Numbered from the stretch's first letter, positions 1-4,131 are shown. The stretch is DNA of 4,131 bases from a virus (IMGVR_UViG_2671180770_000018); one strand, 5' to 3'. Program-made: numbers and translations. The notes: generated by a model not told the origin, from the letters alone.

Positions 1-324
1 ATGACAAAGGCTGGGATGCCAGAAAGCGTGCGTATTGCCTGAAAATCCAGCCAGCTACAGGGTCGTTCGCACGAAATCTTATTTATTCAACAAAGCCCTT
101 TTGATGTAGAAACTAAGAATGGCCTTCCCTCCACGGTTCAGCTATTTTATGAGGAATCTAAGGATAATGAACCTTTAGCGAATATACATTTTCAAGCAAT
201 AGGTTCTGGTTTTTTAACGTTTGTTAATGCCTGCCAGGAACATGATGACAACAGCTTAAAATTATTTGCTTCGCTGTTAATTTCACTTTCATATTCTAGT
301 GCCTACGCAGACTTATCAGAAACA

Positions 325-648
325 GTGTATATTAATGAAAATAATGAGAGCTACCTGAAAGCTCAGTTTGAAAAATTATCTCAACGTGATATGAAGAAGT
401 ACCTGGGAGAGATGAAGAGTCTGGCAGATGAGGGGGGAATGAAATTTGATGACTATCTGGATAAGATGTCATTTCTGGTGAATGAAGGAAAGCTCGAGCC
501 TGATATTTTAAGCAAAATGCGAGATGCTGCACCGAAATTAATTGCCTTTGCTAAGTCGTTTGACCCAAACTCAAAGGAAAAGATTAAAATACTTACAGAT
601 ACTTCTAATTTAATTTATGATTTATTCGGGGTTAAATCGGGGAAATAA
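325..648 (+). CDS. Hypothetical protein, helical and K/E/L-rich, start codon unresolved (frame open from nt 43)
   Basis: Frame +1 is open from nt 43 to the TAA at 646-648 (201 codons) but has no ATG/GTG/TTG before the GTG at 325, which is where the track ORF starts. No convincing Shine-Dalgarno precedes 325 (agaaaca). The translation is protein-like across the whole open stretch (e.g. YLKAQFEKLSQRDMKKYLGEMKSLADEGG). A hairpin plus T-tract follows at 686-720. No family recognised. Confidence 0.45.
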   Translation: MYINENNESYLKAQFEKLSQRDMKKYLGEMKSLADEGGMKFDDYLDKMSFLVNEGKLEPDILSKMRDAAPKLIAFAKSFDPNSKEKIKILTDTSNLIYDLFGVKSGK

Positions 649-685
649 TATGTGAAGTTCTTCGATGGTATGGAAGGCATTACAT

Positions 686-720
686 AAAAGAACCTAATAC
701 TTATTGGGTTCTTTTTTCTT
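686..720 (+). terminator. Candidate intrinsic terminator downstream of the 325-648 ORF
   Basis: aaaagaacc (686-694) is the reverse complement of ggttctttt (707-715), giving a 9-bp AT-rich stem with a 12-nt loop, followed by a T-tract running to 720. The stem is weak and the loop large, so this is tentative. Confidence 0.3.
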
Positions 721-919
721 CTATCAGTGCCATTAGCAGGAAGAGATATCACCGGAGTTTAATGTGTGATTTTTTATTTATCGTCGAACCTGGATTGTTT
801 ATCATTGTCCTTAACAAGGCTAACGGCTAATAAGATTATTTCCATCACTTCGTGAGAGCTTCATGCTTTGAGGGGATCTCATTTTTCTTTTGCAATGAGA
901 CAGGTGCTTCCTGTTGTTA

Positions 920-928
920 TGGTATAGT
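920..928 (+). promoter_or_regulatory. Candidate extended -10 promoter element (TGgTATAGT)
   Basis: tggtatagt at 920-928 matches the extended -10 consensus TGnTATAAT at 8 of 9 positions. No good -35 at 17-18 bp spacing. It lies about 440 nt upstream of the 1370 start, so any link to that operon is speculative. Confidence 0.15.
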
Positions 929-1369
929 ACCCCGCTATTGAGCCTCCTTCACAGTGATGCTGAATAACATAACTCAATGATATATCGATAAAATAATCTC
1001 TACATTTGAAAATGCACGGTAATTCTGAAATGCAAAAAATCAACCAAACCAGCGCAATGCCTGAAAAAACTGACGTTCACTGGAGTGGTCGGTTTAGCGT
1101 TGCACCAATGCTCGATAGGATGTACCGTTTTTGAAAAACAAGTAGTTATACACTTTGTGGGAGCCTATTGGGAACCTGTTATTCTTAGAAAGCATCATTT
1201 GCTCATCACTTCAATTGACCATGGTTAAAGCCAGCTATAAACTTGACAAACGAGGTAACTGGTTGCTTAGGCCCAAGTGGGCACACCATAAGAAGCTCAT
1301 GTTGGTGATGAAGCAACCCATGAAGTATCGAGAATAATTATAAAGTTCACTATCTTTGAGGTTTCTTAT

Positions 1370-1942
1370 ATGTTTTGCGAAGAAAAAGTAGCTCAAATGG
1401 CTGCATACCTACTTCTTAAGAGAGGTGGGCGCATGGCATATCTGAAATTGATGAAGCTGCTCTATCTGTCTAACCGCCAGTCGATTTTGAAGCATGGCAG
1501 GATGATCGGCGAAGATAGCCTTTACTCTATGAAATTTGGACCAGTCATGTCGAATACGCTGAACTTGATTCGCGGTAAGGCTGAAGGCATTGGTGACTAC
1601 TGGTACAACTTGATAGAGACGAACGGGCATAATGTATCGTTGCGTTCAGATCCGAGGGAAATGGATGCAGACGAGGTCTTTGATGAATTGAGTCGTGCAG
1701 ATATCCGGATTTTAGATGAAATCTATTCTCGGTATGGGCATATGAACCGATTTGATCTCGCAAATATGACGCATTTAGAAAGCGTTTGTCCAGAGTGGCA
1801 CGATCCTGGCAATTCTCGTAAGCCTATAGACCTGAAAGAAATGCTGATCAGTGAGGGTAAAAGCGAGGATGAGGCTAATCGCATAATTGGCAAAATGGAA
1901 GAATCTCAGAAACTTAAGGAATTTTCTTTGCAATTATCATGA
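1370..1942 (+). CDS. Panacea-domain (DUF4065; GepA/SocA/PanA-like) protein, putative antitoxin
   Basis: ATG at 1370 with GAGG at 1358-1361 and an 8-nt spacer; 190 aa. The N-terminal two thirds carry what I recognise as the Panacea/DUF4065 hallmark: LKLMKLLYLSNRQSILKHGRMIGEDSLYSMKFGPVMSNTL, then YWYNLIE, then HLESVCPEWHD. The C-terminal 35 residues are an acidic, probably helical tail. The TGA stop at 1940-1942 overlaps the next ATG (ATGA). Confidence 0.85.
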   Translation: MFCEEKVAQMAAYLLLKRGGRMAYLKLMKLLYLSNRQSILKHGRMIGEDSLYSMKFGPVMSNTLNLIRGKAEGIGDYWYNLIETNGHNVSLRSDPREMDADEVFDELSRADIRILDEIYSRYGHMNRFDLANMTHLESVCPEWHDPGNSRKPIDLKEMLISEGKSEDEANRIIGKMEESQKLKEFSLQLS

Positions 1943-2358
1943 CGGATTATCAGCCATACAGGAAAGGAACTGTGCTTGCCCCAACTGGACCATGCAATCA
2001 TCTTCATGTGATTTGTAATGATCCTGTTTATTACCCCGTTAACGATTGTTATTGTGTTTTAGTTGTTAATATTTCTAGTATCAAGGATGGTGTCCCCCAC
2101 GATCCGTCTTGCGTCTTGAATTCTGGTGATCATCGCTTTATCAAGCATCCAAGTTATGTTGTTTACGCTGAAGCTATAATTTGGCGAGTGGATAACATGG
2201 TTAGAAAGCAGCGATCGGGTGAGATTTCTGTTCATGATGATATGCCAGAAGCTACATTCAATAGAATTCTGGACGGTTTTGATATCTCTGATGAAGTTAC
2301 GCCAAAGAACCTTAAATTTAAAAATAAATATTGCGTATCATCTATTGATGATGAGTAA
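1939..2358 (+). CDS. Hypothetical protein translationally coupled to the Panacea gene; candidate toxin/effector with possible MazF/PemK-like fold
   Basis: ATG at 1939-1941 overlaps the upstream stop by 4 nt and has no Shine-Dalgarno of its own (nearest AAGGA is at 1916-1920, too far), which implies coupled translation; 139 aa, TAA at 2356-2358. By-eye similarity to MazF/PemK/Kid toxins: KGTVLAP near the N-terminus, CYCVLVVNISS (cf. MazF CLCVPCTTQ), VLNSGDH (cf. VVLSGQER), AIIWRVDN (cf. SIAWRARG), MPEATFNRILDGF (cf. APEELQLIKAKI). The N-terminal half is also rich in Cys/His. The fold assignment is unverified. Confidence 0.7.
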   Translation: MTDYQPYRKGTVLAPTGPCNHLHVICNDPVYYPVNDCYCVLVVNISSIKDGVPHDPSCVLNSGDHRFIKHPSYVVYAEAIIWRVDNMVRKQRSGEISVHDDMPEATFNRILDGFDISDEVTPKNLKFKNKYCVSSIDDE

Positions 2359-2397
2359 ACAACAGGAATTGTTTCGGTATAACTTCTGGAGTTTTCT

Positions 2398-2571
2398 ATG
2401 GAAGATCAAAAAGCAACCAAGCCACAGGTTAAGTTCGACACAATGAAAGCATTCGTAGGTATGGGTGCTGCTGTTGAAGTTCTGATGAAGGCTGCTCCTA
2501 ATGCGTTCACTCACGCTACTGTCTCTGGTAAAGAGCAGCAGGGTAAGCTTCGTCGTCTCAAAGCAGCATGA
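2398..2571 (+). CDS. Small hypothetical protein (57 aa), below the ORF track cutoff
   Basis: ATG at 2398 preceded by GGAG at 2388-2391 with a 6-nt spacer; open frame to TGA at 2569-2571. Translation: MEDQKATKPQVKFDTMKAFVGMGAAVEVLMKAAPNAFTHATVSGKEQQGKLRRLKAA. Codon choice (ggt, gct, cgt, ctg, aaa) looks like an expressed enterobacterial gene. A strong terminator begins 20 nt after the stop. The overlapping track ORF 2219-2446 is in another frame and lacks these signals. Confidence 0.5.
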   Translation: MEDQKATKPQVKFDTMKAFVGMGAAVEVLMKAAPNAFTHATVSGKEQQGKLRRLKAA

Positions 2572-2590
2572 TCATAGCTGGTGCTTTTTG

Positions 2591-2619
2591 AAAACCCGCC
2601 TTCAGGCGGGTTTTTTCTT
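2591..2619 (+). terminator. Rho-independent terminator, plus-strand oriented, possibly weakly bidirectional
   Basis: aaaacccgcc (2591-2600), loop ttca, ggcgggtttt (2605-2614): a perfect 10-bp stem with a GC-rich core, followed on the plus strand by a T-tract (ttttttcttt, 2611-2620). On the minus strand the hairpin is followed by caaaaag, so termination of the minus-strand operon here should be inefficient. Confidence 0.8.
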
Positions 2620-2900
2620 TAGTGATTTTCTTTGCCCTTCTGTTTGACTGTTCTGACCTGTTCCCACTCGATACGTCCTTCTTCTCGCCTTTTGTCTATG
2701 TATTCCGCAAGATCCTGAATATTGATGCAACGTTTTGCTTTTTGTGATGTGCCGATGCGATATGTTGGAACGGGCAACTTACAAGCGTTTGCTTTTGCTT
2801 CTGCCGTGGCTGGACTCATACCAAAGTACTTTTGGCTAACTGCTGAGAGTTCAATGTTTGGGGTATTGAATTCAGCCATCAGTAAAAACAAGGTGTTCAT
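2619..2900 (-). CDS. PrtN-family small DNA-binding protein (pyocin-activator-like; excisionase-like in enterobacterial prophages)
   Basis: The track ORF is 2619-2927, but the most plausible start is the third in-frame ATG at 2900-2898, which has GGAG (2910-2907) and a 6-nt spacer. The product then begins MNTLFLLMAEF and contains IQDLAEYIDKRREEG, both of which I recognise as PrtN-family features. TAA stop at 2621-2619. Confidence 0.7.
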   Translation of the reverse strand: MNTLFLLMAEFNTPNIELSAVSQKYFGMSPATAEAKANACKLPVPTYRIGTSQKAKRCINIQDLAEYIDKRREEGRIEWEQVRTVKQKGKENH

Positions 2901-2936
2901 AATTTTCTCCATCAAAACCGGCTGCACCCGGGAAAA

Positions 2937-3509
2937 TCATAATTCTGTGCTGGTGGCAGGAATTAATTTCTGCCAGATAGCGGAAACATATTTTGCCTGA
3001 TGACGGGCATCAGCCAGGGCGTTGTGCCGTTCGCCATCGAAAGGCATGTCCATTTTGGGGTCGAATCCGATGGAACGCCCAAGCGTAACGATCGTGCGTA
3101 CATCGTGGTCATTCCAGTATGCCCACGGGCAGATTTGTCCTGCTCGCTCATAAGCTCCACGTAAAATTACGTTGTCGAAGGTGGCTCCGTTACCCCAGAC
3201 TTTTAAATATTTCGTATTGTCTGCGTGCCGGTTAATGAAATGATTTAGTTCTGAGAGAGCATCGCTGATCGACAAAGTATCATCAATACAGATTGCAGCT
3301 CGTGCTTCAGGGCTTTGTTTCAACCACCACAGGATGGTATCGCCGTCAGGTGTAGCTCCTTGCTCCATAGCACTTTCCAGGCTAACAACCGTATAGAATT
3401 CTTGTCCGATGTCTCCGATTTCTGGAGTGAAGAACACCGCGCCAATGGAAACGATCGGTGCATCCTTATTTTTCCCCATCGTCTCAAGGTCGATCATTAA
3501 GTTGTTCAT
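2937..3509 (-). CDS. DnaQ-like DEDDh 3'-5' exonuclease (phage-type)
   Basis: The track ORF starts at a GTG at 3512, but the adjacent ATG at 3509-3507 has a strong Shine-Dalgarno, GGAGGTG (3521-3515), with a 5-nt spacer. The 190-aa product shows three exonuclease motifs: IDLET (Exo I, D and E), WGNGATFDN (Exo II, D) and HNALADA (Exo III, H and D). The start shares one nucleotide with the upstream stop (TGATG). Confidence 0.85.
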   Translation of the reverse strand: MNNLMIDLETMGKNKDAPIVSIGAVFFTPEIGDIGQEFYTVVSLESAMEQGATPDGDTILWWLKQSPEARAAICIDDTLSISDALSELNHFINRHADNTKYLKVWGNGATFDNVILRGAYERAGQICPWAYWNDHDVRTIVTLGRSIGFDPKMDMPFDGERHNALADARHQAKYVSAIWQKLIPATSTEL

Positions 3510-4075
3510 CACTTCACCTCCAGCGGCGGTTCCGGTAGCGGCATCCAGTGAGTTGCTTGCTCAATACCATTACCCGGCTTAATCGTTGCATCTCCGCGCC
3601 GAAAGGTGCTTCCGGTATAGCGTGCGGAGCATATTAGCGGTTCAACCTGAGAGCTATCGAAATTCACCGAAATAAGCACGTTCTGGCCCTTTTCAGGCAT
3701 TCGATCACTACAGCTTATCCAACTATCCGGAGTTCCCGGAGAGTTGCCATTTACATCGAAGTTTGGCTCTGCGTCCTGAACTAGGAGGATGTAACCATTT
3801 TTGGCTGTATCAAGTTCTAACGCCTCGGTGACGGTACCGAAATAGCGATTACCTAAATCAACATCACAAGTGCTTACATCAATGGAAACTTCCATGCCTT
3901 CGATTAATTCTGGCAAGTTGTAAGTTTGGCTTACAGGCTCTGCTTCCAGCGATACCAGTGCAATTCGTGCCAGTTCTTCCGCTTCTTCTGCTGGCAGTAC
4001 AACGTTGCTGCCAGGTCCGTATGTTTCGCGCCACTGCTGGATTGTCAGCAGTCGCCCTTTGGTAATAGTGATCAT
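3509..4075 (-). CDS. Phage DUF551-like protein
   Basis: ATG at 4075-4073 with GAAGGA about 8 nt upstream on the minus strand; 188 aa. The C-terminus reads ATHWMPLPEPPLEVK, which matches my memory of the conserved DUF551 C-terminal motif. The TGA stop at 3511-3509 overlaps the exonuclease ATG. Confidence 0.75.
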   Translation of the reverse strand: MITITKGRLLTIQQWRETYGPGSNVVLPAEEAEELARIALVSLEAEPVSQTYNLPELIEGMEVSIDVSTCDVDLGNRYFGTVTEALELDTAKNGYILLVQDAEPNFDVNGNSPGTPDSWISCSDRMPEKGQNVLISVNFDSSQVEPLICSARYTGSTFRRGDATIKPGNGIEQATHWMPLPEPPLEVK

Positions 4076-4131
4076 GCCGCGTTTCCTTCTTTCTTATTAA
4101 CAATCACACCGTCATATATTTCATTAAGGTG
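4072..4131 (-). CDS. 3' end of an upstream minus-strand gene, truncated by the window edge
   Basis: The minus-strand frame entering from 4131 is open for 19 codons (HLNEIYDGVIVNKKEGNAA) and ends at a TGA (4074-4072) that overlaps the DUF551 ATG in an ATGA arrangement. Only 60 nt are visible, so this is weak. Confidence 0.3.
   Translation of the reverse strand, partial: HLNEIYDGVIVNKKEGNAA

Follow-up and report, generated by a model that had tools for sequence, protein, structure and literature searches.

Lambdoid phages may carry morons, extra genes that are found in some relatives only and are often deviant in composition, stx being an example. Elements that integrate specifically at dusA, including phages Lys8385Vzw and mEp460, enter the 5' end of that gene, carry a phage-borne surrogate dusA 5' end, and have a PrtN-family gene near att, the integrase lying by attP in the opposite arm (Farrugia et al. 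2015; PMC4482086). A PrtN homologue is frequent among them, occurring in 60 of 94 dusA islands, but not universal (PMC4482086), and Lys8385Vzw itself was published as dusA-integrated (PMC7946995). The T6 cluster of PanAT toxin–antitoxin pairs combines a stand-alone upstream Panacea antitoxin, with no N-terminal domain, and a downstream toxin of MazF/PemK-like fold at a −4 overlap (Kurata et al. 2022; PMC8832971). Its validated member is from Pseudomonas moraviensis, where the T6 toxin is toxic and inhibits translation, and its PanA binds and neutralises it (PMC8832971).

The locus described here is alike in these dusA-element features and in the T6 gene arrangement and toxin fold. The window (the whole stretch of DNA analysed, 4,131 nt of virus IMGVR_UViG_2671180770_000018, with coordinates counted from its first letter) takes in the left border of a lambdoid prophage that sits in the 5' end of the E. 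coli dusA gene. Compared with described dusA-specific elements, the addition is that the interval between att and the excisionase gene (xis) is a slot for cassettes, of which at least four alternatives occur, and compared with the published T6 pairs the PanAT pair sits in a defined att–xis slot of a Stx-type lambdoid phage, where it is known from sequence.

Anatomy of the prophage border at dusA

1–97, plus strand: right end of an IS903-type (IS5-family) insertion sequence (genome matches, inverted repeat)
98–648, plus: 3' part of a host DUF2713 protein gene, E. coli yjbL/yjbM (PF10897, E = 1.6e-59)
686–715, plus: host intergenic hairpin followed by a T-run, likely the yjbM terminator (hairpin search)
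1012–1116, plus: host dusA, codons 1–35, displaced when the prophage integrated (translation against K-12 DusA)
1105–1115, no strand: attL crossover, the host/prophage junction (alignment of window, host and phage)
1116–1176, plus: phage attP arm of ∼60 bp, common to all cassette variants (homology)
1177–2384, plus: exchangeable cargo cassette, PanAT (homology breakpoints)
1370–1942, plus: panA, putative 190-aa antitoxin with Panacea (SocA/DUF4065) domain (PF13274)
1939–2358, plus: panT, putative 139-aa toxin of MazF/Kid/CcdB fold
2398–2571, plus: conserved 57-aa backbone gene (phrog_2741 match)
2590–2615, plus: intrinsic terminator between convergent plus- and minus-strand genes (hairpin and T-run)
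2619–2927, minus: excisionase-type gene of the PrtN family, PyocinActivator domain (PF11112, E = 4e-23)
2937–3512, minus: 3'–5' exonuclease, Rv2179c-like, DEDDh, early-left operon (PF16473, E = 1.4e-74)
3509–4075, minus: DUF551 protein, early-left operon (PF04448, E = 1.7e-21)

The window opens with the end of a mobile element of the IS903 group (IS5 family), recognised by a transposase C-terminus at 1–42, ending ...MTKAGMPESVRIA and a stop, and by a terminal inverted repeat that stops at 97 (...TTATTCAACAAAGCC). Positions 1–110 have 1234 matching sites in 516 E. coli genomes (355 plasmid-borne), every one of them annotated 'IS5 family transposase', and the L104 copy of the element is 1056 bp long with a matching left repeat, GGCTTTGTTGAATAAAT, that is mirrored at window 81–97. 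The element interrupts the host DUF2713 (yjbM) gene, to which homology begins at 98; BLAST matches to yjbM start at 85, and the reading of 85–97 as yjbM sequence was rejected, since the IS inverted repeat resembles yjbM there by chance. In CAU16175, O157:H7 and K-12 the DUF2713 gene sits downstream of zur, and E. coli chromosomes match the window at 98.7 per cent identity downstream of zur and DUF2713. Positions 98–648 are AT-rich chromosomal DNA and not phage (GC of 85–648, 36.0 per cent).

The dusA remnant translates identically to residues 1–35 of K-12 DusA and then diverges, its open reading frame continuing into phage DNA to a stop at 1134; RefSeq labels the stretch an incomplete tRNA-dihydrouridine synthase, and dusA is intact at the corresponding site in K-12. 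Host-specific bases extend to 1104, 1105–1115 are identical in host and phage, and phage attP sequence follows from 1116. The Stx1 phage Lys8385Vzw matches 1009–4131 at 99.1 per cent and has its integrase across attP on the other side; the integrase lies beside attP both in this 99%-identical phage and in mEp460, while the window itself covers attL only. Insertion in the dusA 5' end, a displaced 5' fragment at attL and the PrtN-family gene, which also matches phrog_1300 'excisionase' (E = 8e-40), together place the prophage among the dusA-specific elements.

Base composition and the exchangeable slot

The first-pass annotation had described 1–2620 as an AT-rich cargo block beside a GC-richer phage backbone, citing hand counts of ∼32, 45 and ∼60 per cent GC and a strand switch at the terminator, and had proposed that the plus-strand genes were acquired separately from the early operon. 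The counts were exact on recomputation (31.7 per cent at 661–720, 45.0 at 121–180 and 60.0 at 3001–3060, the last inside the PF16473 exonuclease gene as stated), and the strand switch is likewise present, plus-strand frames stopping at 2571 and minus-strand genes starting at 2619. The hairpin at 686–715 falls within the 661–720 spot. A GC profile computed as a test of the annotation also contains a step, which is modest: mean GC is 39.9 per cent in 1–2620 and 47.3 in 2621–4131, a difference of 7.4 points. The ranges of 200-nt windows overlap between the two blocks (32.5–47.5 against 42–52.5 per cent), so the original spot counts pitted a local minimum against a local maximum. A model with one change point is significant, with a log-likelihood gain of 13.55 that was reached by 1 of 1000 shuffles of 100-nt blocks. 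A step near 2600 is thus real, but its best fit is ∼2400 (2412; −2 lnL support interval 2349–3003) and not 2620, where the gain is 10.5 (12.5 at 2384).

Divided by origin, GC is 37.0 per cent in host DNA (85–1134), 40.6 in the cassette and 47.1 in the backbone, and the cassette is more AT-rich than the backbone (chi-square p = 5e-4). The K-12 counterpart of the host stretch, with no prophage present, has 34.8 per cent (∼35 per cent). In Lys8385Vzw a trough of 40–42 per cent at 21.0–27.0 kb spans integrase, dinI and hypothetical genes; against the phage mean of 51.6 per cent the cassette lies at the 5th percentile of equal-size windows, and the stx1AB region forms a similar trough. Low GC is therefore a trait of the whole att-flanking 6 kb, and alone is no proof of separate acquisition. 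On the best explanation the step arises where AT-rich host DNA and an AT-rich att-proximal accessory zone of the phage abut the somewhat GC-richer early operon.

Within that zone the cassette has sharp breakpoints, at 1176 and 2385, in alignments to relatives. Homology to mEp460, O157:H7, PhiR40_1 and 1720a-02 extends to 1176–1178 and ends there; related prophages have 1009–1176 in common and then fill the slot with a 177-aa gene, a YafO pair or a 182-aa gene. In the 177-aa variant homology is regained at 2385, and in the YafO and 182-aa variants at 2638–2649. Where it restarts at 2385 it does so at the ribosome-binding site of the 57-aa gene, which is kept at 97–100 per cent identity behind both PanAT and 177-aa cassettes, and 2385–2618, comprising this gene and the terminator, is conserved backbone and not cassette. 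The terminator has an 11-bp stem with 6 G–C pairs followed by a T-run (−19.3 kcal/mol, z = −3.4). Each alternative cassette terminates in its own hairpin, and all are oriented like the displaced dusA 5' end.

The dusA prophage backbone, recognised by the adjacent xis–exonuclease stretch, is carried by 741 of 5426 complete E. coli genomes (∼14 per cent), and 205 of these 741 (∼28 per cent) have the full PanAT cassette; among 80 loci in IMG/VR, 42 have PanAT and 38 the 177-aa cassette. In Pluralibacter and Kosakonia a PanAT cassette ∼77 per cent identical adjoins an xis ∼74 per cent identical; the cross-genus census is thin, a scan of genome contigs with the excisionase yielding just 4 loci. Because PanAT adjoins a comparably diverged xis in other genera, these loci suggest that PanAT has long been one of the slot's alleles and was not imported recently. 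A repeat search turned up only short chance pairs and no repeats flanking the cassette of the kind that would mark a transposable unit, and cassette exchange is more simply read as homologous recombination within the conserved flanks.

The cassette resembles lambdoid morons in being present in some and replaced in other phages of a homologous backbone, and in its below-mean GC. It differs from them in that alternative cassettes replace each other instead of being simply inserted, that it shares its terminator with a gene of the conserved backbone, and that its promoter is only putative: the cassette leader has one promoter-like site (1215–1243, a 9/12 consensus match), and a scan of the whole window gave 6 sites against 8.8 expected from shuffles, which is no enrichment. 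An Rfam scan gave two sub-threshold matches only, both terminator-driven.

The PanA/PanT pair

PanA matches PF13274 over residues 27–137 (E = 2.2e-19; score 70.9 bits, cut-off 25.7) and is named 'Panacea domain-containing protein' in RefSeq. The two genes overlap by 4 nt (ATGA, 1939–1942), and the same two-gene module with the same overlap is also found in Proteus, Shewanella and Enterobacter, in unrelated settings. The locus thus has the three marks of a PanAT system, namely a Panacea-domain antitoxin, a co-oriented and tightly spaced gene pair, and a partner in a recognised PanT cluster. The partner's profile match P0151 (E = 2.9e-46) is WP_025672779.1, to which PanT is 49 per cent identical and which appears as a T6 toxin in Dataset S1; the E. 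coli prophage pair's own accessions were not found among those Kurata 2022 dataset accessions that were searched, so the T6 link rests on the homologue's accession. The N-terminus of PanA, MFCEEKVAQ, also resembles the published MIFSEQKVAQ (PMC8832971). From these matches the cassette appears to be a type II PanA/PanT toxin–antitoxin pair of the published T6 cluster, and the encoded PanT is presumably toxic.

PanT has the SH3-like barrel of the MazF/PemK fold, and its best structural matches are all toxins. It is a distant member, with only 8–17 per cent identity to MazF/Kid/PemK toxins and different conserved residues, and its antitoxin is a Panacea protein, not MazE. Searches with PanT gave no significant match in Pfam (PemK_toxin, PF02452, included), NCBIfam or the PADLOC models, and a sequence-profile search of the PDB with the PanT family gave nothing at E < 0.3. 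In contrast to the description of the published T6 pairs, the family here is marked by His, Cys and Asp invariants (H21, H23, C26, D55, C58 and H65). A SocA-type protease-adaptor mechanism for PanA is not favoured, given the stable complex formed by the published T6 pair.

Competing readings and their implications

Several readings of the AT-rich side of the window were weighed. That the whole of 1–2620 is a single cargo block acquired apart from the early operon would agree with its lower mean GC, with the strand switch at the terminator and with the variability of part of it among relatives, and yet is barely credible, and is already ruled out for positions 1 to ∼1110 and 2385–2618: 1–97 is an IS end, 98 to ∼1110 is host DNA that is present and equally AT-rich in prophage-free K-12 and contains both AT-rich spots of the first-pass annotation (121–180 and 661–720), the phage genome matches from 1009 only, and 2385–2618 is conserved along with the backbone. 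What had been observed in the sequence is confirmed, and the interpretation is partly supported, in that the plus-strand genes of 1177–2384, the sole part that behaves as cargo, are exchangeable among otherwise near-identical prophages and AT-richer than the backbone; relatives, aligned as a second test, vary in slot contents and do not all carry the same block. The supposed block is an IS end, host DNA, the attL junction and the cassette, an ordinary prophage border that can already be explained. A near-even chance, on the lower side, is given to the step being uninformative about acquisition, with an AT-rich att-flanking zone, as reported for lambdoid phages generally, lying beside an islet of host DNA and PanAT long resident in the lineage. 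The Lys8385Vzw trough covering integrase and dinI, the shared 40–42 per cent GC of all four alternative cassettes, a third-position GC of PanA (0.47) equal to that of backbone genes, and the Pluralibacter and Kosakonia loci all fit such residence, but the third-position GC of PanT is only 0.31, the module also occurs in unrelated elements, and the slot is polymorphic with sharp breakpoints, so exchange has happened.

The role of the pair can also be read in several ways. It is possible, though on the unlikely side, that PanA/PanT acts mainly in abortive infection, the Panacea domain sensing phage and freeing the MazF-fold toxin; the pair occupies a prophage slot that also hosts a toxin–antitoxin pair with a YafO-family toxin, and the module adjoins an Abi_2 gene in Proteus, yet the pair has no PADLOC match, a literature search turned up no T6 PanAT assayed for defence, and the data are no less compatible with an addiction or stabilisation role. 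A broader and more speculative proposal, which we would regard as unlikely, makes the att–xis interval of dusA lambdoid phages (Stx1 and Stx2k included) a dedicated hotspot for toxin–antitoxin and defence cassettes, all facing the same way, fed in the lysogen by the host or phage-borne dusA promoter and each insulated from xis by its own terminator, with T6 PanAT a phage-sensing abortive-infection module whose toxin has a His/Cys metal site. In PADLOC and NCBIfam scans of the window and alternative cassette proteins YafO was the sole useful match. The 139-aa protein might instead be no toxin but a MazF-fold or SH3-like accessory such as a metal-binding regulator, PanA having some other role. 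Its want of a sequence-family match, its His- and Cys-rich invariants and the fact that the single T6 member tested comes from a distant genus would suit this, but its pairing with Panacea holds strictly across genera and contexts, as does the 4-nt overlap, the protein falls in the same homology cluster as the validated toxin, and its best structural matches are exclusively toxins, which makes an accessory protein quite improbable.

The best explanation overall, and in our judgement a highly probable one, is a left prophage border at dusA, layered as IS, host DNA, attL, att arm, slot and backbone, with PanAT in the slot. From left to right the layout runs from an IS903-type end in yjbM through AT-rich host DNA to codon 35 of dusA and attL at 1105–1115, and onward through a 60-bp att arm, a 1.2-kb slot, and the 57-aa gene with its terminator to the minus-strand early-left genes. 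PanT would be a translation-blocking endoribonuclease that PanA holds inactive through direct binding. A lysogen may express the pair on the plus strand from a cassette promoter, by read-through from the dusA promoter, or both, and its transcription is predicted to halt at 2590–2615, before running antisense into the excisionase gene. The prophage could gain from the pair either an addiction module or an abortive-infection defence.

A GC step at a prophage border can blend true cargo with host DNA, insertion sequences and conserved phage genes, so that boundaries drawn from GC alone are misplaced; here the comparison of relatives fixed them to within a few bases, at 1176/1177 and 2384/2385. 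The slot is a natural system for the study of cassette exchange. The putative PanA/MazF-fold pair is carried on Stx1-converting phages also, and if it serves to keep the prophage in place or other phages out, it would matter for how Shiga-toxin phages persist and spread.

The dusA junction and its host flank

Identity between the window and E. coli chromosomes reaches 98.7%. Gene order in the annotated E. coli genomes examined runs zur, DUF2713, truncated dusA, a Panacea-domain gene and two hypothetical genes, followed at the same loci by a PrtN-family gene, a 3'-5' exonuclease gene, DUF551 and lambdoid early genes as far as a LexA-like repressor and Cro. The features on which the argument depends are as follows.

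1-97: IS903-type (IS5-family) element, right end; genomes carry as many as 31 copies of this piece, and plasmids have it too
98 to ~1110: host chromosome, comprising the DUF2713 gene (PF10897; 3' part only), its terminator (686-715) and the dusA leader
1370-1942, + strand: panA, 190 aa, Panacea/SocA domain (PF13274, E = 2.2e-19)
1939-2358, + strand: panT, 139 aa, overlapping panA by ATGA
2590-2615: strong hairpin with T-run (terminator), between the + and - strand genes

Homology to free phage genomes begins only at 1009, and the top match, the Stx1-converting phage Lys8385Vzw (99.1% over 1009-4131), carries its integrase across attP and has been published as dusA-integrated (PMC7946995). At the same site K-12 has an intact dusA and no prophage. 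Alignment of the window with attB of K-12 and attP of two phages places the crossover between host-specific bases, which extend to 1104, and phage-like sequence from 1116, the intervening 1105-1115 being common to both partners. The dusA remnant open reading frame is exactly DusA residues 1-35 and diverges afterwards, and the phage has its own surrogate dusA 5' end. In the phage-side sequence L002 this surrogate (5004-5110, against window 1012-1116) encodes a variant N-terminus, MHDNHETLKINQTSVMPEKTGVYWNSRFSIAPML..., which would substitute for that of the host in the dusA restored at attR. The host's own dusA promoter and 35 codons, now displaced, are directed into the adjoining cassette. Displacement of the dusA 5' end and supply of a phage surrogate are likewise described for dusA-specific integrative elements, and 60 of 94 dusA islands hold a PrtN homologue (Farrugia et al., PMC4482086).

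To the left, the IS903-type element (1056 bp in length, its terminal repeat mirrored at 81-97) disrupts the host DUF2713/yjbM gene. Homology to yjbM starts at 98, and the best-matching complete E. coli genomes, which are without the insertion, begin to match at 85 or 98. K-12 has the yjbL-yjbM gene split, several strains carry it with a frameshift, and O157:H7 has it whole (318 aa). The host stretch is 37% GC, and its K-12 counterpart, where there is no prophage, is an islet of 34.8% GC within flanks of 51%, formed by the yjbL-yjbM region and the next intergenic stretch (1505-3169 of the K-12 sequence). Both AT-rich spot counts that the first-pass annotation had assigned to phage cargo (121-180 and 661-720) lie inside this host DNA.

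Composition and the exchangeable slot

The first-pass annotation had read 1-2620 as an AT-rich cargo block, separately acquired, beside a GC-richer early operon; the observation is confirmed in substance and the interpretation is partly supported. Its three hand counts were exact on recomputation (31.7% at 661-720, 45.0% at 121-180 and 60.0% at 3001-3060), but they set a local minimum against a local maximum, and over the full blocks the contrast is smaller, 39.9% (1-2620) versus 47.3% (2621-4131), a gap of 7.4 points, with overlapping ranges in 200-nt windows. The step itself is significant: when 100-nt blocks were shuffled 1000 times, the observed likelihood gain of a one-step model was reached once. 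It had been expected near 2600; its best position is 2412 (support interval 2349-3003), and it therefore falls closer to 2400 than to 2620. The strand switch at the terminator is real, with + strand open reading frames ending at 2571, the hairpin and T-run at 2590-2615, and - strand genes starting at 2619.

Comparison with other prophages shows which part of the block varies. At 93-99% identity, the window's 1009-1176 and its sequence from 2385 on recur in the O157:H7, 95NR1 and 2014C-3097 prophages, in mEp460 and in 38 IMG/VR contigs, all of which hold between 1176 and 2385 an unrelated segment of 803 bp with a single gene of 177 aa. In PhiR40_1 the slot is filled by a two-gene pair including a YafO-family toxin (PF13957) and in 1720a-02 by one 182-aa gene, homology to the window picking up again in both at 2638-2649. 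The right homology breakpoint coincides with the ribosome-binding site of a 57-aa gene, and therefore the exchangeable unit is 1177-2384. By sequence comparison, that gene (phrog_2741) is backbone rather than cassette, as is the terminator. The 57-aa gene (2398-2571) is 97-100% identical behind two unrelated cassettes and is missing where the slot holds the YafO pair or the 182-aa gene, as well as in the Pluralibacter and Kosakonia relatives. The excisionase-exonuclease stretch occurs in 741 of 5426 complete E. coli genomes and the window's full cassette in 205, while several hundred other E. coli genomes match over ~213 bases only, that is, the 57-aa gene and terminator. Other cassettes finish with hairpins of their own, like that at 2590-2615.

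An AT-richer exchangeable segment thus does lie beside the early operon but is confined to 1177-2384, and the remainder of 1-2620 consists of IS end, host chromosome, att arm and conserved backbone. The right breakpoint of the cassette (2384) and the best GC change point (2412) are 28 bases apart. The cassette is 40.6% GC against 47.1% for the backbone (p = 5e-4) and does not differ significantly from the host DNA to its left (p = 0.09). Further homology breakpoints at 3520-3554, ~3748, 3937, 3976 and 4075, at or near the exonuclease/DUF551 boundary and within DUF551, are the usual lambdoid early-left mosaicism.

Low GC is not a mark of recent import, and belongs to the whole att-proximal accessory zone. 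Lys8385Vzw is 51.6% GC genome-wide, with a 40-42% trough at 21,000-27,000 that takes in hypothetical genes, dinI, integrase, attP and the PanAT cassette, and a second AT-rich trough over stx1AB (41,000-43,300). GC is 40-42% in each of the four alternative cassettes, and third-position GC in panA equals that of the backbone genes, only panT being markedly AT-rich (0.31). A PanAT cassette with ~77% identity adjoins an excisionase gene of ~74% in Pluralibacter and Kosakonia, and in Phytobacter ursingii a YafO cassette of 78% adjoins an xis of 77%, and thus cassette and backbone appear to have diverged together. Given this matched divergence across genera, the cassettes resemble long-established alternative alleles of a single slot.

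The PanAT pair and its possible role

No Pfam, NCBIfam or PADLOC model matched PanT. Within the compact family that its homologues make up (Enterobacterales, Vibrionaceae, Shewanella and relatives), H21, H23, C26, D55, C58 and H65 are invariant and H70 nearly so; the abundance of His and Cys in this set is suggestive of a metal site, which, if present, would be unusual for a MazF-fold toxin. The start at 1939 is supported by the N-terminus MTxYxPYRKGTVLAP, conserved among 36 homologues, and by the ATGA overlap. RefSeq gives a later start (128 aa) in several genomes, e.g. WP_014640052.1. One 90%-identity protein-collection cluster files the 190-aa PanA and 139-aa PanT with a 232-aa member, probably through a clustering artefact or alternative gene calls.

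A homologue of 49% identity, WP_025672779.1, is entered as a cluster T6 toxin in Dataset S1 of Kurata et al. (2022), where T6 is described as 'EndoA/PemK/MazF-family RNAses' in which the antitoxin gene comes first and the genes typically overlap (-4 or -1). For the T6 pair of P. moraviensis, toxicity, neutralisation by PanA, complex formation with PanA and selective action on protein synthesis have been shown (PMC8832971). The most likely function of PanT is that of an endoribonuclease that blocks translation and is kept inactive by PanA.

The same two genes, with the same overlap, occur at the end of a Proteus prophage, in an integrative island of Shewanella and in an Enterobacter lambda-like tail operon, and the module therefore moves as a unit. 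The Proteus copies lie beside peptidase S8 and Abi_2 or UPF0167 genes, and the small Shewanella island has an AlpA gene on one side and an integrase gene on the other. In Enterobacter hormaechei-type prophages (L095-L098, 3432-4453) the pair, with a toxin of 73% identity, sits between a Prok-JAB/NlpC-P60-domain gene and a tail-tip J-like gene.

All cassette variants are oriented like the displaced 5' end of dusA, and no terminator turned up between 1134 and 1370, so read-through from the dusA promoter could transcribe the cassette. Expression may depend on this route, on a weak promoter-like site at 1215-1243, or on both, and transcription would stop at the 2590-2615 terminator, just short of running antisense into xis.

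All components are of known kinds (IS903, dusA-specific prophages, PanAT cluster T6 and lambdoid mosaicism), and the E. coli/Stx-phage PanAT pair and the slot with its four alleles add members or instances to these rather than new categories. Panacea as a sensor is a published hypothesis, and for T6 a hypothesis only (PMC10440598). For the prophage, the pair may serve either stabilisation or abortive-infection defence.
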